Assembly (NCBI GenBank): GCA_964482505.1
Contig: CAYZYD010000001.1
Coordinates: forward strand, 1 to 25,358
Source of the DNA: an uncultured Planctomycetia bacterium
GTDB lineage: Bacteria > Planctomycetota > UBA8108 > UBA1146 > JAJFFE01
DNA length: 25,358 nucleotides
Direction: 5' to 3'
The first letter of the stretch is position 1. The number at the start of each line of letters is the position of its first letter. Below the pieces are notes generated by a model. The model was given only the letters and a program-made list of their open reading frames with translations. It was not told where the DNA came from and did not search any database. This document shows positions 1,665-17,471 of the stretch, in pieces. A program made the translations under genes and the position numbers.

Positions 1665-1832
1665 CTAGTGTCCTGTTCGAAAAGTTCGAGCAAGAATCGC
1701 CGGCCCTCGACCTCCCTGGCGTTGTTGCCGCTCCTCGAAGGAGTTACCAATCCGACTTGCGTCGCGGCGCCTAGCCAGGAAGGCCGAATGGCTCGCCGAG
1801 TTCTCACTCGAACTTTCCGAACAGGACACTAG
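1665..1832. mobile_element. MITE-like non-autonomous element: 22-bp terminal inverted repeats flanked by CTAG
   Basis: The left end TGTCCTGTTCGAAAAGTTCGAG (1669-1690) and right end CTCGAACTTTCCGAACAGGACA (1807-1828) are reverse complements with one mismatch. CTAG flanks both sides (1665-1668 and 1829-1832). The interior is self-complementary, there is no transposase, and a related half copy lies at 19863-19934. Confidence 0.75.
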
Positions 1833-2905
1833 AGCGGCACCTGCCACTGATCCTCGCGAACGTTATTGGCGATCTTGAGCGCCCCCGTCGCGACGAGCAG
1901 TCGGTAGTCTTCGGGGATTACGACGGTCGCCCCTTCGTAGCCTTCGCCGCGAAGCTTCTGCTGAATCAGATCCTTGAGACCGCGGATCTGCGAACCGCCT
2001 CCCGCAAGGATGATGTTCTGAAGCACATGCTCAACGGCGTCCGACTCGACCTTCGAGAGAAGCTCACGAATCGAACTCAAGATCGGCTCGACCACAACCT
2101 CGCAGCATTCGTTCATAATGTCTGAGAAGTCGACCGTCTTCGGCTTACCGTCGACGTAAACCTTGATCTTCGCGTCCTTCTTCTTACCGACGAAGGCGTG
2201 ATTCTCCTTCATCTTGGTGATCGTGACGCGAGTGAGTCGGATATCGGGGAAGCGTTTGGAGATGATCTCTTGGAGTCGCTCGTCGATCGCGTCGCCTGCG
2301 ACCGGAACACTGACCTGATCGTTGGGGCCCGGATAGTAACCCTGCACGAGACAGCAGTCGGTCGTTCCCGCTCCGATATCGACGATCAGCGAGTGCTTCG
2401 TCGGATCGATATAGCTTGCGTCCTCAACCGCGCGCTCGTCGTCGCGCAACCCCATGGCCGCGAGGAAGGGCTCGGGCACAATCAGGATTCGGTCGAGCAC
2501 TCCGGCGAAGACCGATCGAATGATTTTCTGCTTCTCCTCCGACGCATTGGCGGGTGCCCCGACGATGCCCCAGAGTTCGCTATTACCCTTGGGATCGATC
2601 TGTTCGCGCAGGAACTTGGCGAAGTCACCGCAGACTTTGGGGTCGTCGACAAAGCCCTTCTTGAGCGGCCACTTGAGATCGAGGTGGAGCCGATACTCGA
2701 GCGCATTTTCTCCGAAGAGCACGTTGTTGTCGGTCGGGAGGATGCCCGGAATGATGCCCGGCTTTGAGTAGCCGACGAGCGACGGGTAGACGCACTGCTC
2801 GTAGTTGATCGGCTTGCCATCTTTTGAGGCGCGAAAAACGCTAGTGTTGGTTCCGAGGTCGATACCGACACGGAGAATGGTCTTGCTTGCGGTCTTCTCC
2901 GCCAT
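1829..2905 (-). CDS. Actin-like ATPase, MamK-like rather than canonical MreB
   Basis: Actin-fold motifs GIDLGTNT, VPEPF, VDIGAGTTD and LAGGGS. It shares PGPxDQV and LQNIxxAGGGSxIRGL with MamK as I recall that sequence. ATG2905 has AGGAG 7 nt upstream; 358 aa. Confidence 0.88.
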   Translation of the reverse strand: MAEKTASKTILRVGIDLGTNTSVFRASKDGKPINYEQCVYPSLVGYSKPGIIPGILPTDNNVLFGENALEYRLHLDLKWPLKKGFVDDPKVCGDFAKFLREQIDPKGNSELWGIVGAPANASEEKQKIIRSVFAGVLDRILIVPEPFLAAMGLRDDERAVEDASYIDPTKHSLIVDIGAGTTDCCLVQGYYPGPNDQVSVPVAGDAIDERLQEIISKRFPDIRLTRVTITKMKENHAFVGKKKDAKIKVYVDGKPKTVDFSDIMNECCEVVVEPILSSIRELLSKVESDAVEHVLQNIILAGGGSQIRGLKDLIQQKLRGEGYEGATVVIPEDYRLLVATGALKIANNVREDQWQVPL

Positions 2906-2953
2906 GCAGGGGCTCCTTTCAGCCGCCACTCCCGACCCGAGCCGAGAGTTTCG

Positions 2954-2975
2954 GAGGCCAAGGGGGATCGGCCTC
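2954..2975 (-). other. Intercistronic stem-loop without a U-tract
   Basis: On the minus strand it reads GAGGCCGA-tccccc-TTGGCCTC, an 8-bp stem with one G:U pair. It begins 2 nt after the stop at 2978 and lies upstream of the actin RBS. Confidence 0.45.
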
Positions 2976-2977
2976 TA

Positions 2978-5062
2978 TCACTTCTTTTTCGCGAGGTGAC
3001 CGTCGACGAGTCGCGGCTCGGCGAGCACGCGGATAATCGACGTATAGTCTTCATTCGACGCCGGAAAGAGTCGCGGCGCCATTGCTACGGATCGGCTCGC
3101 TTCGCGACGGAACTGAAGTAAAACCTGCGGGAATTCGGGACGGTCGGGTTCGTTGCGAACTACGACCCCGAGTTCGCCGGTGGCGAGTTCCACCCACGAT
3201 CCGACGAGGTAGAGCCCGTGCGCCCTGACGCAGCGAGCGAGACCCGCCTTGAGGACAGGTTCGGCGCCGAGTTTCCGGTAATGGCGTTCGACATGGGGGC
3301 GCCACCCCGCCACTCCGTCGGGCTTGGACCGAGTTAAGTGCGAGGCCGCTCGCCAGAGTTCGAGATCGCTACGCTCGAGCGCTCGATCTTCGCCGCAGTC
3401 GTAGCCCGGCAACTCGCGGAGATCGGCGACCGATTGCTCGAGCTTTTCAAAGAGTGGCGGCTCTTCATTGGAAGTATCGACGAGGGCGGCGAGGACAACA
3501 TCGCGCCAGCGCCGGGTGAACTCCGCTCCGGGCTCGAGTTCGACCCCGAGTATGGAAAGCGCAAAGGCGAGGCTCGACCAGCTCAGTTCAAATGGCGAGG
3601 GGTTCGGAGTCGGACGCGTAAGCTCAGAGAGCGCGAGCGCCCGACACCACTCGCCCGGGCTCGCCTCCTCAACGAGCCTGGCAAACGCTTCGAAGTCGAG
3701 CTCTTCACGATTGAAGATCGAGCGGAGGAGCGCCCGCCAAGCACGCTCGAGTCGCGCGAGCGATCGATACTCTGGAAAGGCTTCGAGCGACATCAACGGA
3801 CGGCATAGAGACAGGGCCGAGGATGGACTCGAAACGGTAGCAGTCGACGCTTGTGCCAACTCGGCTTCGACGGCGAGTCGCCGCTGTCGTTCGTCCTCGT
3901 ACTTGGCTCGGATCGAATCGACCGTCTCTTCGAGTTGGCTCGCTTCGGCGCGAACCCGCTCGAGCTCGGCATTTCGTTGCGCGATCAACGTGAGCAGCTC
4001 CCCGACTCCGCCGAGTAGTTCGGGATTCGATTCAGCCCCGCTAGTCCGCCCTGGTGATAGCCCAGGCGACGACGGTTCGCCGGCTTCTGTAGCGGGGCTT
4101 TTGACCTCTCGCGGCGCCCGAGGCGCGGGACGGTCCTCCTCGCGGATCCGCTTCGCCTTGGCCCGGAGTCGTTCTTGACCGGTGCGCGGCTCGTCGGGCG
4201 CCGCGGGTCGACTCGCCTCGAGAATGGGATCTTCAAAGTTCGCGAGCGGTCGCTCGGGCGGACGCTTCGAAGACTGCTTCTGCGCTTCGTGCGCGAGATA
4301 TGAGATAGCGCCCCCGTCGCGACGGCTCTCAATCGGCTGCTCTGCGGGCAGCGGCCGCCAACCCTCTGAAAACTCGAGTCCACTCTCGGGGATATCGTGG
4401 TAGTCGCGATCGTCCGAGGGGCTGTCGAGATAGGTGCGCTCGAGATCGAGATCTATTTCGAACGACTCCGGTTCGGAGAGCTCGATATCGACAAACGACG
4501 GAGCCGACTGGTAGGCGGTCGCTCCCGGCGACGAGCGGGTGTCGCCCTCTCTCTTGGATTGGCTCGGGCTCTCCCGAACCGGGCCAGGCGCGGGCTCGCC
4601 ACCACTGCCGAGCCGCTCTTCGAGCGCGGCCAAGATCTCGGCATCGGTCAGCCCTTCGAGACCCTCTTCGGTATCCGCTTCCGGATCGACGCCAAACGAA
4701 ATCGACCACTCGCCCGCGCTGGAACTCCCCTCCCACGGCGCGAACTCCTCCATCGGCGATAGGAACGGGGCTTCATCGAGCCGCGTCAACCGATCGAGTC
4801 CGGGGCCGGGCCCGATAAAGTTGAGCGCGCCACAAGCGCGAAGCGGAGCGACGTGCTCGAGCAGTTCGTGGATCGCACGCGTGTCGATGTAGGCGACGAG
4901 ACGAAAGTCGAGGTAGATCGCGAGCTCCGCGCCAGACTGCGCCTTCGAAGCGACCTCGGAGCGGAGCGGCTCCCAGTGATCGGGCTCGATCAAGAGCGAA
5001 TCAAACCGCCCCGACAAGACGAGGTGGAGCGCGTGCGCCTGGTGGTGGAACTCAAACTTCAT
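2978..5062 (-). CDS. Multidomain protein: STAS-like domain, acidic/Pro-rich linker, coiled coil, degenerate HD-GYP-like C-terminus
   Basis: ATG5062 overlaps the upstream stop (ATGA); 694 aa. STAS-like segment YLDFRLVAYIDTRAIHELL. Heptad stretch IAQRNAELERVRAEASQLEETVDSIRAKYEDERQRRLAVEAELA. The C-terminal GLYLVGSWVELATGELGVVVRNEPDRPEFPQV matches the YPvGSlVeLntGEvgvVv extension of HD-GYP proteins. Confidence 0.7.
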   Translation of the reverse strand: MKFEFHHQAHALHLVLSGRFDSLLIEPDHWEPLRSEVASKAQSGAELAIYLDFRLVAYIDTRAIHELLEHVAPLRACGALNFIGPGPGLDRLTRLDEAPFLSPMEEFAPWEGSSSAGEWSISFGVDPEADTEEGLEGLTDAEILAALEERLGSGGEPAPGPVRESPSQSKREGDTRSSPGATAYQSAPSFVDIELSEPESFEIDLDLERTYLDSPSDDRDYHDIPESGLEFSEGWRPLPAEQPIESRRDGGAISYLAHEAQKQSSKRPPERPLANFEDPILEASRPAAPDEPRTGQERLRAKAKRIREEDRPAPRAPREVKSPATEAGEPSSPGLSPGRTSGAESNPELLGGVGELLTLIAQRNAELERVRAEASQLEETVDSIRAKYEDERQRRLAVEAELAQASTATVSSPSSALSLCRPLMSLEAFPEYRSLARLERAWRALLRSIFNREELDFEAFARLVEEASPGEWCRALALSELTRPTPNPSPFELSWSSLAFALSILGVELEPGAEFTRRWRDVVLAALVDTSNEEPPLFEKLEQSVADLRELPGYDCGEDRALERSDLELWRAASHLTRSKPDGVAGWRPHVERHYRKLGAEPVLKAGLARCVRAHGLYLVGSWVELATGELGVVVRNEPDRPEFPQVLLQFRREASRSVAMAPRLFPASNEDYTSIIRVLAEPRLVDGHLAKKK

Positions 5063-5889
5063 CGGAGCGGCTCGAATGACGAAAGCCCTTCGGATCGCGC
5101 GAGCAACTCTTCGAGCTGTCCCGCGCTCGCTGGTTGGGAAGTGTTTCGGGTGTCGTAGAGGAGTGCTTCGCGCTGATCGGGCGCGGCTTCGAGAAGGCCG
5201 AGAAGCTCCTCGACTCGCGCATTCGCCAACCCGAGTTCTGCGCCGATCCCCGCCGGACCCGAACAGTCCGAGAGCAAGAAGTATCGCTCTAGTGCTTCGG
5301 CTAACTCGATCGGGTTCCACTCCTCGCGATCGAGATTGTCACGAATCCGGAGGCTGAGCGCCTCGCGTTCGCCGACCTTGAGGATCCGAGCGGGCACCGA
5401 ACTCCAACCGAGCGACTTCGCCGCGAGGAAACGACGGTGACCACTGATGATGCAGTAACTCGATTGTCGCGAATGGCGGAGCAGGATCGGTTCGATCATG
5501 CCGAGCTGATCGAGCGAATGACGCAGCGATTCAAACTTCTCGAGATCGGTCGAGAGCCGCGGGTAAAAACCGTCGGCACGGATGCGGTCGAGCCGAATCG
5601 CATGAATCCAGCGACTCGGGGCAAGCTTTCGGGCGAGCCAGTCCCGCAGGCTTGGCCGCGAATTCGTTCCGCAGAAGGGACATGCAGATCCCGGAACCTC
5701 GCCGCGACAGACGCGGCACCGATCGTGATCGCTTGCCGGCCCAGAGTCGAAGAGGCGACGGAAGAGCCACGACTCACAACTCGGGCAGCGAAACACCTTA
5801 CCGCGCGCCGGCTCCTCCTCTTGAAAGTCCTCCCCACAATTCGGACAGGCGAACTCGGGCGGCTCGAGTTCGAGATCAGACTCGGGCAC
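5059..5889 (-). CDS. ParB/Srx N-terminal (CTPase) domain protein with an N-terminal double zinc ribbon
   Basis: Four CxxC pairs (CPNC, CPSC, CRVC, CPFC), then LGMIEPILLR...IISGHRRFLAAKSLG...RDNLDREEWNPIELAEAL. GTG5889 has GGAGG 7 nt upstream; 276 aa. Confidence 0.85.
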   Translation of the reverse strand: MPESDLELEPPEFACPNCGEDFQEEEPARGKVFRCPSCESWLFRRLFDSGPASDHDRCRVCRGEVPGSACPFCGTNSRPSLRDWLARKLAPSRWIHAIRLDRIRADGFYPRLSTDLEKFESLRHSLDQLGMIEPILLRHSRQSSYCIISGHRRFLAAKSLGWSSVPARILKVGEREALSLRIRDNLDREEWNPIELAEALERYFLLSDCSGPAGIGAELGLANARVEELLGLLEAAPDQREALLYDTRNTSQPASAGQLEELLARSEGLSSFEPLR

Positions 5890-8119
5890 GGTAGTACCTC
5901 CGACCGTAGTAGTAGGAGTAGTAGCCCGGAGCCCGTTCGGCCAGGCCGTTGAGGACGATGCCGAGGACTGGGGCGCCGACATCCTGCAGACCTTGGCGCG
6001 CCCAGTGCAGATCTTGGCTCGTCGTCTTACCGGCCCGGACGACGAGCAGAGTTTGGTCGGCGAACGCGGATAGGATCAGCGCGTCGGAGACGAGGTTGAG
6101 CGGCGGGGTATCGACGACGATGAATTCGTACTCCGCTCGAGCCGCGTCGATGAACTCGCGCATCCGATCCGTCGCGAGTAGCGCCGCGGGATCGTCGGGC
6201 TGCTCTCCTGCGGCCACCACGTCGAGCTTCGGAATGCGTGTCTTGTTGATCACCATCGTCGGAAGATTGGGATCGTAGATCGTCGCCACCGACTCTTGCG
6301 CCATCACGCGTTCGACCTCCCAGGGTCTGAGCCGTAATTTTGTCGGTAGCGGACTGGATTCGGCTCGAGTCGCCTCGAGCCGACTCAGTAGCGCCGCTTG
6401 GCGCGTGTACTCCTGACCGATGAGCCAGTCGGTGAGGCCGGGGACAAGACCGGTCCCGACCAGCGCGTGGACACGCGGTTGGCGCAGGTCGCAATCGACG
6501 AGCAGCGTGCGAATCCCGAGGAGTGCCGCCGACGCGGCGAGGTTCGTACTCGCGAGCGTCTTGCCCGCGGCGGGATCGGGCCCCGATACGAGCAGCACCT
6601 TCTGATCGTCGAGCCCGACGAGCACCTTCTTTGTAATGCTCTTAAAACCTTCTGAGAAGAGGCTCCGACCCGACACGTCGATCGACTCGATCTCCTCAGG
6701 CTTAAAGATCGGGATAACGCCGAGGCAAGGCGCGCCCACATGCTTTCGCAAGGTGTGCTGATTGTGGATGCGATGGTCAAAGAGCTCGACCCCGTAGACG
6801 GACGCGATACTCAGCACGATCCCGAGCATCATGACGAGCAGAAAGTAGTTTCGAAACGCGGGGCCGATCCGCCGCACCGTCCCGACCGGCTCGAAGACAG
6901 TGACGACCTCTTGGGCGAGCTGCGACGCCCCGACAAGCCCATCGAGAGTTGCTTGCAGATTACCGAGTCGCTCGCTCTTCTCCTTGCGCTCGCGCAAGAG
7001 CTTCTCGATCGGCGCTTCGTAGCGTCGAATCTTATCGAGTAGATCCTGGGTTTCGCTCCGGAGTTGGCGGGCGCGATCGCGCTGAGTCTCGAGTTTCGCC
7101 ATTTCGACCGAAGCGCGCGCTTGCGCCTCGCCAAGTTCGTCGAGATTGAGGTTTGCGGCTTCGCGCACGCGCCCCTGAAAGACCGATTCGGGATTGAGAA
7201 ACGAGGCGTAGACCGCCCGCTGAATCTCGAGGTCGCGCGCGGCCGACTGGTATTCGGGATGTTGCGGAGTGAACCGCCGCGCGACCTGGTCGAGCTTGAG
7301 TTCGGCCTCGATCACGGCCCTAGCCGTCGAGACGATCATGTCGTGTACCGGGAAGCCACTCGTGAGCGGCAAGAGCTCGAGCGGGGTCTCGGGCCGGCCA
7401 TCCTCGCGCTCTTGAGCAACGCGGCGAACGCGCTTGAGCTCTTGGCGAGCCCCCTCGACCTGACCCTCGAGCTCGACCTCCATCAGATCGAGCCGTGCGA
7501 TCTTGTCGTGCAGCGAGCGGGTCCAACCGTCGACACGATTTCCTCGCGGGATCTGCGCTTCGCGACGGAGACGATCGATCTCGACTTGAAGGGTCTCGAT
7601 CTGCGCCGCGACTTCGTTGACGTTTGCTTCAAACCGCTCGCGACTTCGCTCGACACTCTGTTCAAAATATCGTTGCGACGTCTCACGAATCGAATCGATC
7701 GCGACCTCGAGTACTTGAGCCGCCACGGTTCGATCCGGGGTGTGGTACGAGACGCGAACGAGGGTATTGGTCCCCTCGGTCGATTGAGGGTCGATGCGAA
7801 GAGCCGCCCGATTCCAGGCCAAAGCGAGATCGCTCCCACTCGCTTCGAGCCGTTCGCGAATCGAATCATCGAGACCGCGCTTGCGGACGAGTTCGACAAA
7901 TACCGGGAGCGAGAATGCCTCGAAGATCGGCATGCCTTTGAGCGCATCGCTCGAGAAGGTCCCCGCGCTTTGGGTGTTGACTTTGAGAAGCGCTCTGACT
8001 TCAAAGCGGTCGGGCTGCGCACGGAGGATCGCGACATTCACGGCGACGGTGAGCCCGAGCACCGTGAGCGCCAACCATTTGCGGCGTAGAAAAAGAGCTA
8101 TGATCTCCGTAAATTCCAT
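5876..8119 (-). CDS. Wzc/GumC-type polysaccharide co-polymerase fused to a bacterial tyrosine (BY) kinase
   Basis: Two TM helices flank a long coiled-coil loop. Walker A GPDPAAGKT, Walker A' VDCDLRQP, Walker B VVDTPP, and C-terminal tyrosine cluster YYSYYYGRRYY. The start at ATG8119 (MEFTEIIALFLRRKW) gives the usual Wzz-type N-terminus; 747 aa. Confidence 0.9.
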   Translation of the reverse strand: MEFTEIIALFLRRKWLALTVLGLTVAVNVAILRAQPDRFEVRALLKVNTQSAGTFSSDALKGMPIFEAFSLPVFVELVRKRGLDDSIRERLEASGSDLALAWNRAALRIDPQSTEGTNTLVRVSYHTPDRTVAAQVLEVAIDSIRETSQRYFEQSVERSRERFEANVNEVAAQIETLQVEIDRLRREAQIPRGNRVDGWTRSLHDKIARLDLMEVELEGQVEGARQELKRVRRVAQEREDGRPETPLELLPLTSGFPVHDMIVSTARAVIEAELKLDQVARRFTPQHPEYQSAARDLEIQRAVYASFLNPESVFQGRVREAANLNLDELGEAQARASVEMAKLETQRDRARQLRSETQDLLDKIRRYEAPIEKLLRERKEKSERLGNLQATLDGLVGASQLAQEVVTVFEPVGTVRRIGPAFRNYFLLVMMLGIVLSIASVYGVELFDHRIHNQHTLRKHVGAPCLGVIPIFKPEEIESIDVSGRSLFSEGFKSITKKVLVGLDDQKVLLVSGPDPAAGKTLASTNLAASAALLGIRTLLVDCDLRQPRVHALVGTGLVPGLTDWLIGQEYTRQAALLSRLEATRAESSPLPTKLRLRPWEVERVMAQESVATIYDPNLPTMVINKTRIPKLDVVAAGEQPDDPAALLATDRMREFIDAARAEYEFIVVDTPPLNLVSDALILSAFADQTLLVVRAGKTTSQDLHWARQGLQDVGAPVLGIVLNGLAERAPGYYSYYYGRRYYRARV

Positions 8120-8459
8120 CGCAACTCTCAGGGCTCGCCGGACCGCACCTTCAAAAACACGAGGCCGCCTCGAGTTATCGGCGTCGGTGGGGCAAAAATC
8201 TGAGAGCGGAATGCAAACTCGCCGCATCCGATTGAGAGCATTCCGATAAGTCGGCGCGCTCCACTCTGTCTGCGCCGCCGGAATCGAAGCTCGAGATAGA
8301 CTCGGTGGAATCGCAACTTCGAGCAATTCGGAATGACTCGATCAAAAATATTCCGGGGTTGCCTCGGGTGAATCCGTGATAATAGTACTTGGTCACTCTG
8401 AAGCGATGCGCATACTCACGGCAATTGCGGGAAGAGAGTCCGAAAGAGGGAGGAAACTC

Positions 8460-12340: not shown

Positions 12341-12544
12341 TGCTGCGCCATTTGAGTCACGAGGCCTCGACGCGGAGAACTCGGAAAAGACTCAACAATT
12401 CGTGAAGCAGTTGTTAGCTTTTGATGGGTGGAACGGCCAGCCGCTCCCCTACCGCTATCCTTCGCCGTCACGCCCTCCCTCCTCTTCTTTGCCCGATCGG
12501 CCCGCGCGCGAGCCCTCCTCTTTCGAACCCTGGAGCACCTAGCT

Positions 12545-14986
12545 TTGACGGTATGCCCCCGCGAGAAACCTGCATTCTGGCGAGCCCTGATCCTCGCAAG
12601 CTGCCTCGCCGGATCGGCAGACCTCCCGGCGCAGGTCGCCGTCAGCTTCGATTCTGCGTTTGCCCTCAATGAAACCCAAGAGCGCGAGCAACTCAAATCG
12701 AGCCGCTTTGCGCCAGTGGCCCCGGCCCCGCGTCAGGGACCTCTGGGCTATATCGAAATCGAACTCGGGCCGGGCTTTTATCTGCACTACCGGAGCGAAG
12801 AGCTCGAAGAAACCCAGGAGGAACGCCGCGAGTTGCAACGACAGGCGCTCGTCTACTTGAGTCGCTTCGTCAACTTTGCCAATCGTCCTTCCAAATTCGA
12901 CTCCCTCTTAATGTCTTTCAACCGAGCCTGGGGAGGTCATTCGGGAGAAGAGCGAGCCGCTCTACTGCGATCGATCGAAGACGAGCTCGTCAAATTGACA
13001 ACCATTATCAAAATCGAGGGCGTGGCCGAGCGGGAACTCGCACTGATCTATTGGCGTCGGTTTGGCGATTGGCGCGAGGGTTACAAAGTGTGGACGGGGA
13101 GGGTGGTGGCTGAGCGCGAGGAATCGCTACGCCGCGTCTTGAGCCACGAACAGCAAGCCCTCGCCGAAGTTACCCAAGAGATCTTGAGTCTGCGCAACAG
13201 CTTTTACGACGCGCGTCGGGCCGAACTCGAATCGATCTTCTACCGCGCTTTGGTGCGACTCGAACCCGGAGCTCCGATCGATAAACTCGAGTCCGCCCTC
13301 GATGAGACGAGCCGCACCCTCGAATCGAGACGCGCCGACGCCTTGATCGAACTGATGGCGGGACTGAGCCAACCGCGCCAACTGCTGCACGACTTCGAAA
13401 CGCAAACGCAGGCTCGCATCGCCGAGGTTGAGAGTGAGTGCCTGGGAAATCTGACGTCCGTCGGGGCCGAGTTCCGCGCTTCGCTCGCCGACAACTTCAA
13501 CCGCTCGCGCCAAGAGCTCCGGCAGCTACTCGCCGCTTCCGACGGGCCCCTCACGGCCCGGGACCTCTCCCAACTCGAGCGAGATCGCGAAGCGATCTAC
13601 GACCTCCTGACCTCCACCACTTGGGAGAGTTACCGCTTTACGCACAACACCCTGCTACAGCGGTGCGGTCCCTTTGTCGATCAACTCAAACAGAGCTTAA
13701 AGTCCTACGAAGCGGACTTTCGGCGCAAGGTCCAAGCCGAGGCGCGCCACTTGATCGATCAGGTGAGGACAAGCGCTCGTGAGAACAAACAGCGAGTACA
13801 AAAGGCGGTGCGCAACTTCCAACTCGAAGCGAATAAGTTTCGAAACGAGTACCGCCAGTTTGACTCGACCTGTAGCGACCGCTGGGTCTCCACCCCGTTC
13901 GACCAACTTCCGGGTATCCAGATCGCGCGCGGTCTCGGCTACGATCTCTCGGGTTGGCGACTCGCCTTCTCCTCATCCTATCTCGATACCCGGCGAGAGC
14001 CGCTCGAGCAGCAATTCCACGCGATTCTGCTGCTCTATCGGCTCTGCCGTTCGGGGGACGCCAAGCTGCTTCAGCCCTTTGTCGATCGATTCAACGGGAT
14101 CTGGACCAAGCGCAACTTCGACTCGAGTAAGTTTCGCGAGCTCGAACGCGCCCTCTGGGATGAACTCAAGGATCTTCAACCGCAGTTCGAAGCGCTCGCT
14201 CGAAACGAAGTGCGTGCGATCTTTACCAAGTCGCGCGGTAACTGGCGACGGTATCTTGCCGAACAGAGGAACGAACTGCGCGTCTTTGTCGGCCGCACCG
14301 CCGCACGACTCGAGAGCGATGCTTCAGACGATCTGCTCGAGGGATTCCAACTCAGTCGTAAGCTCACGGGAGACCTGCTGCGGAGCAGCCTAAAGCTCCG
14401 TGGTTCGATCGAACGCGATTATCTCAAGAACCAGTCCGGCGACTTTGCCGTCGAGCGCGCGCAGCAGTTTGAGACGATCTTCGTCGACGCCCTCACGCTC
14501 GAGAATTCGGTCTCAAACCAGCTTGCCGAAGTGGCCCAAGCTCAGAGCGCCCGCCGGCAGCAGCGCGTCGCAAGTGAGATCCGTGACCTCAGCGACCGCC
14601 TGGACCGCGCCCTCGAAGCGATCGCGCTCCTCGACCAGAAGTTCGAGCAGGAGCTCGAAAGCGCTCTCGAAGAGCAACTTCTCCAAGTCGACGATATTTA
14701 CGCGGGGGTTCCGAGTGTCCGCAGCCTCTACCCCTACCTGAGCCAATTCGAACAGGTCGGTAAGTTGCTTCACCGCACCGAAGATCGTCTGCTCGTCAAT
14801 CGTGAGCTTCAAGATCAGCTGCGAAAGCTGGTCGACGAAGCGCGGGCTGAACTCAAACCGGCGGAGCCAGCGATTGAGACGGACCAGAGCGTCGAAATCT
14901 ACCGAACCTTTTGGGAGCTGACGAGTGAGATCTACCGATCGTCACGGGCAGCCGAACGAACCCTCAAGCAAGGCTTGGATCGGTAG
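12545..14986 (+). CDS. Large predicted alpha-helical/coiled-coil protein of unknown function, probably secreted
   Basis: Long ORF with typical codon usage, rich in E/R/L/Q/A. Signal-peptide-like segment PAFWRALILASCLAGSADLPA|Q. The start is uncertain: TTG12545 has GGAG upstream, while the track gives 12428. Confidence 0.7.
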   Translation: MTVCPREKPAFWRALILASCLAGSADLPAQVAVSFDSAFALNETQEREQLKSSRFAPVAPAPRQGPLGYIEIELGPGFYLHYRSEELEETQEERRELQRQALVYLSRFVNFANRPSKFDSLLMSFNRAWGGHSGEERAALLRSIEDELVKLTTIIKIEGVAERELALIYWRRFGDWREGYKVWTGRVVAEREESLRRVLSHEQQALAEVTQEILSLRNSFYDARRAELESIFYRALVRLEPGAPIDKLESALDETSRTLESRRADALIELMAGLSQPRQLLHDFETQTQARIAEVESECLGNLTSVGAEFRASLADNFNRSRQELRQLLAASDGPLTARDLSQLERDREAIYDLLTSTTWESYRFTHNTLLQRCGPFVDQLKQSLKSYEADFRRKVQAEARHLIDQVRTSARENKQRVQKAVRNFQLEANKFRNEYRQFDSTCSDRWVSTPFDQLPGIQIARGLGYDLSGWRLAFSSSYLDTRREPLEQQFHAILLLYRLCRSGDAKLLQPFVDRFNGIWTKRNFDSSKFRELERALWDELKDLQPQFEALARNEVRAIFTKSRGNWRRYLAEQRNELRVFVGRTAARLESDASDDLLEGFQLSRKLTGDLLRSSLKLRGSIERDYLKNQSGDFAVERAQQFETIFVDALTLENSVSNQLAEVAQAQSARRQQRVASEIRDLSDRLDRALEAIALLDQKFEQELESALEEQLLQVDDIYAGVPSVRSLYPYLSQFEQVGKLLHRTEDRLLVNRELQDQLRKLVDEARAELKPAEPAIETDQSVEIYRTFWELTSEIYRSSRAAERTLKQGLDR

Positions 14987-15183: not shown

Positions 15184-15663
15184 TCAACTTAGAGTGGACG
15201 CTGCGGCCGGCGAAGCTGAAGAGTGGGGTGTCGAGAGTTGGCGGTCGAGCAGATCGGCCCAGGTGGCGAGATAGAGAATCGCGTCTTCTCGTCGGTTGCG
15301 TTCGAGATAGCGCTGGCCGTCGGGTAACGCCGCCAGCACTTCGGGATCTGAGAGCGATTCGAGTTGAGCGATGTCTTTTCGGCTCATCCCAGCGGATAGC
15401 ATCTCGTCGACGATGTGCTCGAAGGTAAAGCCCGTTCGTGGACAGTGCTCGATCACGTGCTCGGTCCAGTCACAAACCCCGACGTATCGAGCCCGCTCGA
15501 GCGCTTCTCGGTGAATGTCAGCGGGACTCAGAGAGGTCAGCTCTTGAGCGAGGTAGCCGCAATTACAACGGCCCATATGCCCCCACTCAAAACGCTCTCC
15601 TTCAGAAAGACGCGCGGCGACGCGCTTGAGAGCCGAGATCAATCGTCTGTTTGGTCGTGCCAT
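15184..15663 (-). CDS. Conserved hypothetical protein with a WGHMGxCNCG motif
   Basis: 159 aa with a protein-like composition. FEWGHMGRCNCGYLAQE, DWTEHVIEHCPRTG and the C-terminal YLATWADLL resemble an uncharacterised family that I recall but cannot name. Confidence 0.75.
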   Translation of the reverse strand: MARPNRRLISALKRVAARLSEGERFEWGHMGRCNCGYLAQELTSLSPADIHREALERARYVGVCDWTEHVIEHCPRTGFTFEHIVDEMLSAGMSRKDIAQLESLSDPEVLAALPDGQRYLERNRREDAILYLATWADLLDRQLSTPHSSASPAAASTLS

Positions 15664-15791
15664 GGTGCGGTTCCTCCAGCGTGCTTGGACCTGAGGCGTG
15701 TATCAAGAGTAACGAGTTTCTCGAGTTCGGCAAAGGGGGCCAGGTCGATCCACCGAAGAGGTCGCAATCAAAGTCTTGCGGGAGCCGCGAA

Positions 15792-17471
15792 TTGAGCGAT
15801 CCCCCGAGAAGATCTTATCAGTCTCAACCACTTGCGCATTCTACGGAACTTCGAGCCCTCGTCCGCCGGCTCAAAGACTGCGTTCCTTCGCAGCTCGAGG
15901 CGGACCTCGATTCGCGCTTTCGCAATTGGGAAGCTCTCGAGCGCCAAGTCGAAAGTGATCGAGCGCGACGAGTGCTCGCCCGAGTTGGCGGGCCGGAATC
16001 TTCTCAAGTCGACGATGTCTACGATATCTACTCAGAATTCTTCGCGGCCGACCGCGCACTCTTAATCCAATGGCTGACCGATCAATCGACCTGGCTCGAG
16101 AACCGCTTTGGGTCGCCTCTTATCGAGCGTTGGCGCGAGCGCCAGCGTCTCAACCTCGCCGGGGTGCTTCCCCAAACTCGTAAAGAACACAAGCTCGCGC
16201 GCGCCTACTCAGACCGCCTCGATCGAGCCCGGGTGCGCGTCGGCCGCCACGGCGAAGGGTCGGTGTCGCTCTCGGAGGTGGAGGAATACACGCGAGCACC
16301 CGATGAGGCTGTTCACCAGGCTGGCCTCATCGTCCGCGCCGCTTGGCTCAACGAGCAGCACCTCGAATTGAGCGGGATCTACGAAAATCTGCTCAGAGTT
16401 CGGCAGCACCGAGCGCAGTCACTCGGAATTGCGAACTCGCGCGAACTCTCAGCGCTCGAGTACGGTCGCGATTACGATCGTTCCGAAGCGAACGAATTTC
16501 GGTCGGCCAGTCTCCAACAACTCGTCCCAGTTGCGCTCGAGTGGTCCGAGCGAGCTCACCGGATCGGCCGTCGTCTCCCTTCACCCTTATGGGGCTTCGG
16601 GTCGGGCCGCGTGAATCTCCCGCACGAAGAATCGCCCGCGTTACTTGTCGATTCGGTCGCTACTTCGCTCGCGCCGCGACTCCCCGAAGTCGCCGACACC
16701 CTCCGAATGCTCTTTGAGTCGGGCGCCGTCGACTCGAGGCCGAAGGCGCGCGGGAGTTTTACGACGTTTCTACCCGACGCGAGCCAACCGGTCTTAGTCT
16801 TACCCGGACTTGGGGGGGTCGATTCGATCGCGCCACTCGTTCACGAGCTCGGTCACGCCTTCGCGTGGCAGCAGGGAGTTCGCCGGTCGGACAACCTCCC
16901 CTTCCGCGACTGGCAACCCCGTCCCGAGGTCGCGGAACTCCAGGCAATCGCGCTCGAATGGCTCGCGCTCCCCGAGCTCGAGGCGCACTGGGGCGACGAA
17001 GTGGCGGCCGAGCTTCGGCGCCAGCAGATCGAGCGCTCACTCTCCACGATTCTGACCGCCGTTCTCATCGATGATTTCGAAGAGCGCGCCGCCCTCCATC
17101 CCGGAGCGGACGCAGAGACACTTGTCGAGCACTGGCGAGCGGTGGCGCGTCCGCTCTTTGACTGGCGCGGCGAGACCCCGGCCACGCTCCTCGACCGGGA
17201 CTCGCTCTGGCTCCTCTGGGCGCCCCTCTTCCGCTACCCGCACTACACACTCAGCTACGCCCTTGCCCATGTGGTCGGCCTCGAACTTGCCGAGCTCAAC
17301 GCGAGAGATTCGGCCGAAGCGTCGGTGCGTTACCTCGAATTGTCGCAGATGAGCGGCCTCGAACCCTTCCGGGAGGTTGTCGGCCGGATTGGGCTTTCGG
17401 ATCCGTTTGAGCGAGGTACCCTTGTCGGGGTCCGCGAGCGCTGCCGGAAGGCGATTGAGCGCTCGCTCTAA
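15792..17471 (+). CDS. M3-family zinc oligoendopeptidase (PepF-like)
   Basis: HELGH (HExxH), EVAELQAIALE carrying the third zinc ligand, and HYTLSYALA. TTG15792 with GGAG upstream was chosen because the track start overlaps the divergent gene. Confidence 0.82.
   Translation: MSDPPRRSYQSQPLAHSTELRALVRRLKDCVPSQLEADLDSRFRNWEALERQVESDRARRVLARVGGPESSQVDDVYDIYSEFFAADRALLIQWLTDQSTWLENRFGSPLIERWRERQRLNLAGVLPQTRKEHKLARAYSDRLDRARVRVGRHGEGSVSLSEVEEYTRAPDEAVHQAGLIVRAAWLNEQHLELSGIYENLLRVRQHRAQSLGIANSRELSALEYGRDYDRSEANEFRSASLQQLVPVALEWSERAHRIGRRLPSPLWGFGSGRVNLPHEESPALLVDSVATSLAPRLPEVADTLRMLFESGAVDSRPKARGSFTTFLPDASQPVLVLPGLGGVDSIAPLVHELGHAFAWQQGVRRSDNLPFRDWQPRPEVAELQAIALEWLALPELEAHWGDEVAAELRRQQIERSLSTILTAVLIDDFEERAALHPGADAETLVEHWRAVARPLFDWRGETPATLLDRDSLWLLWAPLFRYPHYTLSYALAHVVGLELAELNARDSAEASVRYLELSQMSGLEPFREVVGRIGLSDPFERGTLVGVRERCRKAIERSL

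Follow-up and report, generated by a model that had tools for sequence, protein, structure and literature searches.

The bacterial actin BeeR was described in 2025 from Opitutus terrae as a tube-forming protein (structure 8r2n) whose function is not known, and neither the paper (Bergeron et al. 2025, PMC11929497) nor its preprint contains an analysis of genomic context. Here we report on four adjacent genes, one of them encoding an actin of the BeeR type, in a 25,358-nt stretch of DNA from an uncultured Planctomycetia bacterium (GenBank contig CAYZYD010000001.1, positions 1 to 25,358; hereafter the window). In order of transcription they encode a membrane-spanning bacterial tyrosine kinase (BY-kinase; K), a ParB-family protein with zinc ribbons (B), a protein that joins a STAS domain to a dead HD-GYP domain (S), and the actin (A). 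We conclude that the four genes are a real, conserved module that has not previously been described, with a mechanism that we infer. The system is a bacterial actin with adaptors from known domain families, and it is the combination of the four genes that is new. Literature searches on the genomic context of BeeR, on ParB with HD-GYP and tyrosine kinase, and on planctomycete MamK-like actins found no description of this combination, in agreement with an initial annotation made from the sequence, which knew of no such system.

Several described systems resemble parts of this locus. BeeR is the closest solved relative of A, provides its best NCBIfam model and forms its sister clade, but A scores below the family cut-off, lacks the N-terminal extension and has most cross-strand contacts changed; moreover, Opitutaceae BeeR follows a protein of about 130 aa and ribosomal protein genes, not K, B and S. 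In the CpsC/CpsD-ParB system of Streptococcus pneumoniae, CpsD is a BY-kinase of ParA-like fold that binds ParB, the one documented precedent for a partnership of this kind (PMC4574921). In that species the kinase gene belongs to a capsule locus and its partner is the ParB of chromosome partition, whose gene lies elsewhere; in the window, kinase and zinc-ribbon ParB are both dedicated paralogues with translationally coupled genes, accompanied by an actin and an adaptor. The BacNOP-PadC-ParAB system of Myxococcus xanthus (bioRxiv 10.1101/2020.06.17.156356) likewise uses a ParB-fold adaptor to link a cytoskeletal scaffold to a ParA-type ATPase, but the scaffold is a bactofilin rather than an actin, a soluble ParA takes the place of the membrane BY-kinase, and STAS and HD-GYP domains are missing. 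MamK and MamJ combine an actin filament with an acidic adaptor, through which the filament is tethered to a membrane-bound structure, and MamK is the second-best solved relative of A; the window, in contrast, has no mam genes, A stays below the MamK family cut-off, and a separate MamK-family paralogue lies on contig C162. Type II partition systems (ParMRC) also encode an actin-like filament and an adaptor side by side, whereas the present locus has no centromere repeats, a chromosomal housekeeping context, another actin family and another adaptor fold. Finally, K shares the topology, Walker motifs and tyrosine tail of Wzc in group 1 capsule export (Wzc/Wza), but the locus has no Wza, Wzb, Wzx/Wzy or glycosyltransferase, K carries an insertion of its own subfamily, and some K orthologues are pseudokinases.

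All four open reading frames (ORFs) lie on the minus strand and are tightly packed, co-oriented and at the positions the initial annotation had given. K (5876..8119, 747 aa), a Wzc-like class 2a polysaccharide co-polymerase (PCP-2a)/BY-kinase paralogue, ends with a TGA at 5876-5878 and overlaps B (5059..5889; ParB family, two N-terminal zinc ribbons) by 14 nt. B starts with a GTG at 5889, with a GGAGG 7 nt upstream of it; an in-frame ATG further upstream, at 5982, is also open, and the GTG is favoured because alignments of B orthologues begin near that residue. B and S (2978..5062, 694 aa) share an ATGA at 5059-5062, and 72 nt separate the stop of S (2978) from the ATG (2905) of A (1829..2905, 358 aa). 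The junctions are thus those described before, and the earlier statement that the window holds no wza, wzb, glycosyltransferase, parA or mam genes was confirmed for the rest of its 25 kb. A sequence search inside the cluster found no convincing terminator between the four genes. GC content along the window is 55-66%, without a compositional island. The source genome is a fragmented Planctomycetota metagenome-assembled genome (MAG) of 4.05 Mb in 615 contigs, 82% complete, and the locus is present in DNA runs labelled stromatolite metagenome.

The gene order recurs in related MAGs when the neighbourhoods of actin homologues are compared, so that the lack of conservation feared in the initial annotation was not what we found. 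The same K-B-S-A order occurs in three loci (L026, L027, L111) and in genome G006, where a contig break inside S splits it. L041 keeps K-B-S with a convergent A, and G004 has B-S-A where a contig ends. The permuted order S-A-K-B (L112/L113) is found in a relative that has an actin of only 53% identity and belongs to a different subclade of the actin tree, and G161, from another family, has K-B-A. L115 has K-B-S with no adjacent actin, three loci have S-A with no K-B nearby (L028, L114, L116), and in G024, G040 and G306 K-B are on different contigs from S-A or A. In each locus, neighbouring genes overlap or are separated by very little. The four genes stand as a conserved set in that the same order is found in at least four further loci and a permuted one in another, all tightly packed; they are not obligatorily together.

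Co-occurrence extends to gene content. Among 41 relatives, S is found only in 7 genomes, those with an actin orthologue of at least 64% identity, and the zinc-ribbon ParB in 8 genomes, all within the 12 that carry a BeeR-like actin. Among 301 evenly drawn Planctomycetota genomes the actin is present in 9, and G000, G306 and G146 are the only ones in which a full-length zinc-ribbon ParB was found, G004 having a partial one; all four carry the actin; these counts are descriptive and not a test, the genomes being related. Two traits travel with the module, an insertion in K and eight invariant cysteines in B. Searches with tblastn using K and B of the window missed divergent homologues at distant actin loci, which hidden Markov models (HMMs) of the families later found.

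K had been called a BY-kinase, and the family matches bear this out, with 144 bits for TIGR01007 (cut-off 108), E 1e-17 for TIGR03007, E 0.007 for Wzz, and CapB/Wzc matches in the PDB at E 1e-28 to 1e-30. Two hydrophobic segments, TM1 (residues 14-34) and TM2 (418-448), would enclose a periplasmic coiled-coil loop (35-417), and a cytoplasmic P-loop kinase domain would follow (449-747); the TIGR03007 chain-length-determinant match spans residues 138-482, the periplasmic part. Walker A (GPDPAAGKT), A' (VDCDLRQP) and B (VVDTPP) are intact, and the C-terminus carries the tyrosine cluster YYSYYYGRRYY (5891..5923, minus strand, residues 733-743). By its Walker motifs, tyrosine cluster and two transmembrane segments, K is assigned to the Wzc-type PCP-2a/BY-kinases, and the window copy looks catalytically competent. 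The kinase domain is interrupted by about 50 extra residues (6254..6406, minus strand, residues ~572-622) with a conserved LR(L/V)RP motif, and the HMM and PDB matches break at this insertion. L026, L027, L041, L107, L111 and L115 conserve it along with the window copy; the canonical BY-kinase of the genome (contig C51) lacks it, as do the kinases paired with ParB::HD-GYP fusions, which are discussed below. Judged by these alignments, the insertion is confined to the K subfamily that goes with S and actin.

Catalytic features vary across this subfamily. The tyrosine cluster is present in the window copy, L111 and L107; in L041 and L115 only one Tyr, at the terminus, is left of it, and L026 and L112 lack it, L112 keeping one internal Tyr. 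The tail of the L027 copy could not be read reliably. The Walker A lysine is lost in L026, L027 and L112. Losses of the Walker A lysine and the tyrosine cluster in several orthologues mean that kinase activity is not a conserved requirement, and scaffolding rather than phosphorylation may be the conserved role of K. Besides the kinase on C51, the genome encodes a Wza-linked kinase on contig C122, where its sole Wza match lies beside it. The K orthologue of G024 (L105, contig C169, 332-2642) is split over two frames (HMM positions 11-603 and 601-732), which reflects either pseudogene formation through a frameshift or faulty assembly.

The assignment of B as a zinc-ribbon ParB also stands, with 61.6 bits for ParB_N and E 8e-7 for Zn_Ribbon_TF. 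Its domain order is two zinc ribbons with the eight invariant cysteines, a basic helix, the ParB N-domain and a divergent helix-turn-helix (HTH). Residues 129-276 align with Noc/Spo0J chains of the PDB, including the HTH region up to 276; Pfam HTH_ParB gave no match in B of the window and matched the relatives in G161, G098 and G179. B ends about 30 residues past the HTH region, without a C-terminal dimerisation domain. The GERR box reads GHRRFLAA and the ENLxR box DNLDRE, with NLxRE kept, and two Arg and the Asn of these boxes are conserved across the family (alignment A4). The Glu of the GERR box is replaced in all ten family members (GHRR, GLRR or GQRR). Of the CTP switch proposed for B, the ParB N-domain is present, and the switching role is uncertain because the catalytic Glu is replaced in every member. 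The basic helix (R-R-x-G-x-x-x-R-L) may resemble the ParA-stimulating N-terminal peptide of canonical ParB. No parS-like repeats were found in or around the cluster, nor any repeated palindromes beyond a transposon-like element described below, and the genome has a canonical ParA-ParB pair on contig C147. A word-based search with the B alignment returned only two further family members, and a scan of metagenome contigs with the B family alignment (A5) found no relative.

S was confirmed in both halves of its proposed architecture. The N-terminal STAS domain (4748..5062, minus strand, residues 1-105) is clear at the level of the family, whose profile (A3) matches TM1442, RsbS and SpoIIAA chains at E 1.6e-5 to 1e-3; PF13466 is matched by 11 of 14 members (best E 1.8e-10), the window copy alone staying below threshold (E 0.038). 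A phosphorylatable Ser/Thr at the DSSG position of STAS is not conserved, the window copy having DTRA and its orthologues S, P, Q or T. An acidic, disordered linker follows, with the motif F-x-I-D-L-D/E-x-E-R-x-Y-L ... R-D ... L-x-F ... W (4328..4477, minus strand, residues ~196-245), which an HMM finds in every member of the S family, distant ones, short STAS proteins upstream of actin and actin-less paralogues included, and which is a candidate partner-binding peptide. Next comes a predicted coiled coil (3833..4009, minus strand, residues ~352-410), heptad-rich in the family alignment, with weak Pfam Filament and Tup_N matches at 355-404.

The C-terminal domain of S (2996..3790, minus strand, residues ~425-689) is modelled by AlphaFold2 as a helical bundle with a small beta domain (pLDDT 82.6, pTM 0.80). 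An exhaustive profile search of 1.8 billion sequences returned 34 close representatives and then about 460 weaker matches (E 1e-9 to 1e-3); of 10 weaker ones that were checked, 9 belong to HD_5 proteins and cover the end of HD_5 with its C-terminal beta extension, and the top ESM Atlas matches for the domain are HD_5 clusters (0.93). Compared with true HD-GYPs, S has ILGVE in place of LLHDVGK and lacks the HD dyad, the HHExxDGxGYP motif and the GYP segment; Pfam HD and HD_5 give no match in S, and family alignment A2 has no invariant His or Asp. Homology and missing motifs together identify the S C-terminus as HD-GYP-derived and catalytically dead, as the earlier label of a degenerate HD-GYP had it. 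Foldseek with the C-terminal model found nothing in the PDB at E<=0.001, only weak phosphodiesterase matches, and a word-based homologue search with residues 425-694 returned S itself. PDB sequences matching the C-terminal profile were designed helical proteins, which we set aside as noise. A complex prediction for S (190-694) with A gave an ipSAE of 0.01, which speaks neither for nor against contact. Actin-less paralogues of S were also seen. Genome G000 has a second S-family gene on contig C63 (L108, 6023-7522, minus strand), whose product shares, at 28% identity, the acidic motif and the dead HD-GYP domain; the gene runs off the contig end, and no actin gene adjoins it. A similar paralogue lies beside BatA/MoxR genes in L110.

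A is an actin-fold protein by its domain and PDB matches, as first proposed, but its description as MamK-like did not hold. It scores 405.4 bits on the NCBIfam BeeR model (NF053558, cut-off 530) against 249 on the MamK model (NF040964, cut-off 400), and its best solved relative is BeeR 8r2n (E 2.4e-95), with MamK second (E 4e-47); for comparison, an Opitutaceae BeeR (L065) reaches 581 bits. In a maximum-likelihood tree of 86 sequences, A falls in a Planctomycetota clade (98/88 support) sister to verrucomicrobial BeeR, with the MamK-like paralogue as outgroup. These comparisons identify A as a BeeR-like actin, closer to BeeR than to MamK or MreB. A disordered N-terminal extension of 30-50 aa is a hallmark of BeeR (PMC11929497), and A lacks it: position 1 of the BeeR model aligns to residue 11, and only about 10 residues precede the first strand (18 if an upstream GTG is used). 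Of the published cross-strand residues of BeeR (PMC11929497), A retains E149 and has conservative replacements at R242, I277 and L284; changed are E153 (to K), R157 (to S), T307 (to E), Q310 (to S), N246 (to D) and the C-terminal N and L, the terminal L being P. A three-stranded tube cannot be assumed for A, because most cross-strand contact residues differ.

True BeeR has a gene of its own ahead of it. In 42 Opitutaceae/Verrucomicrobiota loci (L046-L101, e.g. L065 9402-9869) a conserved protein of about 130 aa precedes BeeR on the same strand; it matches no Pfam family and ends in G-I-A-D-F-I-D-x-M-L-A-Q-E. Its D-F-I-D core resembles the F-x-I-D-L-D of S, and both may be filament-binding peptides; hhalign found no similarity between this protein and the N- or C-terminal domain of S. 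A MamK-family paralogue is present in 41 of 41 relatives searched, often in two copies. The copy in G000 (L002, contig C162, 1010-2113, minus strand) scores 389 bits on NCBIfam MamK (cut-off 400), has an unannotated 422-aa gene directly upstream and ends in EEYWQ, resembling the C-terminus of saltatorellin as deduced from the published reverse primer. Saltatorellin, a planctomycete MamK-like actin (bioRxiv 10.1101/817700), was considered as a counterpart of A and rejected: judged by its C-terminus, it appears to correspond to the other, MamK-family paralogue.

The wider distribution of these parts points to two older gene pairs. In G098, G122, G049 and G067 a BY-kinase gene is followed directly by one encoding ParB_N, HTH_ParB and a bona fide HD_5 domain in a single polypeptide (ParB::HD-GYP). 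These kinases have intact Walker motifs and a strong tyrosine cluster (a YYYYY tail), and G122, G049 and G067 have no BeeR-like actin. G049 has two fusion genes in tandem, and G179 has a fusion without an adjacent kinase. The loci of these pairs and fusions are L128 (3452-7513), L130 (5483-10929), L131 (4614-8621), L123 (3065-6931) and L122 (6072-7757). The pairing of BY-kinase and ParB recurs across several Planctomycetota families, which supports the partnership proposed for K and B. Neither this pair nor the fusion was described in the literature searched, and the main text of a 2025 survey of ParB-CTPases mentions no HD-GYP fusion, BY-kinase neighbour, zinc ribbon, Wzz or actin. On the actin side, an S-family gene often lies directly upstream of actin across the Planctomycetota clade, either in full length (clusters 47 and 93) or in a short version (cluster 117) of 220-240 aa that has STAS and the acidic motif only and precedes sister-branch actins. 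S has the look of a fusion that joined a partner from each older pair, STAS and the motif coming from the actin side and the dead HD-GYP domain from the kinase/ParB side. S would bridge the two pairs, because it joins actin-side and kinase/ParB-side parts; this Rosetta-stone type of evidence gives the linker role first suggested for S independent support from domain fusion, in the ParB::HD-GYP proteins next to BY-kinases and the STAS-motif proteins next to actin.

From the gene content, conservation, co-occurrence, domain identities and fusions we propose the following contacts, direction of signalling and cellular role. We lean towards a functionally linked module built from two older pairs, in which K is tied to the actin via B and S. 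One pair would be a membrane-spanning Wzc-type BY-kinase with a ParB-fold protein, fused to HD-GYP in other Planctomycetota; the other would be a BeeR-like actin preceded by a STAS protein with the acidic F-x-I-D-L-D motif. In the lineage of the window, S would merge STAS and the motif with the dead HD-GYP domain, and ParB would now be a separate zinc-ribbon protein. K could serve as an oligomeric, envelope-spanning anchor in the inner membrane, with its MinD/ParA-like domain facing the cytoplasm, on which B would dock through its ParB N-domain and/or the preceding basic helix. S may use its dead HD-GYP domain to contact the K-B side, and its STAS domain and/or linker motif to bind the actin filament, and the outcome would be a cytoplasmic actin filament tied to an envelope-spanning complex. 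The most economical guess at its purpose is that it probably places or patterns an envelope process, such as polysaccharide export or the identity of the pole or bud.

Could K be an ordinary co-polymerase working with Wza/Wzx/Wzy encoded elsewhere, with the ParB and HD-GYP proteins as c-di-GMP or DNA-binding regulators and S-A a mere neighbour? K has every BY-kinase hallmark, there is a Wza elsewhere in the genome, BY-kinases with ParB::HD-GYP occur without actin and with intact kinase motifs and strong tyrosine clusters, and HD-GYP domains and c-di-GMP commonly control exopolysaccharide. Yet the genome already has a canonical BY-kinase (C51) and a Wza-linked one (C122), the K subfamily has its own insertion and has lost the Walker A lysine in L026, L027 and L112, the zinc-ribbon ParB was found only in actin-bearing genomes, the four genes are together even in permuted order, and S itself joins an actin-side with a kinase-side part; we regard this explanation as unlikely. 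The permuted order bears equally on the idea that K-B and S-A are two unrelated operons, adjacent by shared ancestry within one small clade. That the pairs occur apart (L028, L114, L116, G024, G040, G306) and that a single clade of the actin tree supplies most full clusters would fit such an origin. What makes it, to our mind, quite improbable is that S-A-K-B lies in a different subclade and K-B-A in yet another family, that L115 keeps K-B-S without A, that co-occurrence is phyletic as well as positional, and that the ATGA and 14-nt overlaps join B to both its neighbours.

A hybrid DNA segregation system, with B binding a centromere-like site by its HTH, the actin moving DNA as in ParM/ParR and K as membrane tether, would draw on the ParB fold of B with an HTH aligned to Noc/Spo0J; an actin with a DNA-binding adaptor is also the logic of type II partition systems. 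We consider it very unlikely, given that there is no parS-like repeat array in or around the cluster, that B has neither the C-terminal dimerisation domain nor the catalytic Glu, that a canonical ParA-ParB pair exists on C147, that plasmid and phage hallmarks are absent and GC is uniform, and that S-A pairs are also seen where there is no ParB. A defence or mobile-element cassette built on a ParB-like nuclease-fold protein seems to us hardly credible: ParB/Srx-fold proteins do occur in defence islands, and a high-copy miniature inverted-repeat transposable element (MITE) abuts the cluster, but PADLOC gave no family match beyond a weak ParB-domain match, no integrase, transposase or phage gene is found in the window, the flanking genes are housekeeping ones (pseudouridine synthase, HflX, LysR), and the MITE, with at least 25 copies genome-wide, is not specific to the locus.

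The linked module that we favour has its own difficulties. The gene set is separable, with S-A alone, K-B-S without adjacent actin and K-B on other contigs, and S paralogues without actin exist (L108, L110). B lacks the catalytic Glu of ParB, and the loss of the Walker A lysine in the K of L026, L027 and L112, with the tyrosine cluster also gone in L026 and L112, makes the role of phosphorylation uncertain. Related genomes are not independent samples, and many loci come from fragmented MAGs, in which adjacency and absence are often undecidable.

We hypothesise, tentatively and as something possible rather than probable, that the locus represents an undescribed class of Planctomycetota membrane switch, in which a Wzc-type BY-kinase acts as ParA for a dedicated nucleotide-binding partner of ParB fold, free or fused to HD-GYP, and which in the lineage of the window is wired via S to a BeeR-type filament. 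If true, the BeeR family would gain its first function, that of a rigid filament anchored in the envelope and serving polarity, budding or the localised secretion of polysaccharide in bacteria whose division does without FtsZ. Planctomycetota have no FtsZ, and budding is the mode of division in many of them, which makes envelope-tied cytoskeletal modules especially interesting there. The pairing of BY-kinase and ParB has a fair chance of being a new kind of switch. It would extend the CpsD/ParB interaction to dedicated, co-evolving paralogues, and ParB::HD-GYP points to a link between the ParB-CTPase fold and signalling of the c-di-GMP type. The locus and its relatives are the first genomic clue to partners of the BeeR family, and for the Planctomycetota branch they name concrete candidates, a STAS protein with an acidic peptide, a ParB-fold protein and a membrane BY-kinase.

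Upstream of K, the divergent intergenic region at 8120..8375 is likely its promoter region; no sigma-70 consensus was found there. Elsewhere in the window are genes for a secreted CarboxypepD_reg protein, a pseudouridine synthase, HflX, a DUF1848 protein, a pyridoxal-phosphate (PLP) decarboxylase, an MFS-acyltransferase-AMP-ligase fusion and a LysR regulator, and two large plus-strand ORFs (12428-14986, 852 aa, and 15651-17471, 606 aa) have no significant Pfam family. At the other end of the cluster, a palindromic MITE-like element of 168 bp (1665..1832) abuts the stop codon of the actin gene. Its 32-nt inverted arms are 91% complementary, with CTAG at each end, and the terminal CTAG provides the TAG stop of A. 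The element lies outside the system but makes up the operon's 3' end. The same genome carries no fewer than 25 full-length copies, 99-100% identical, which makes the element look recently active; partial copies lie at contig ends, and it probably adds to the fragmentation of the assembly.

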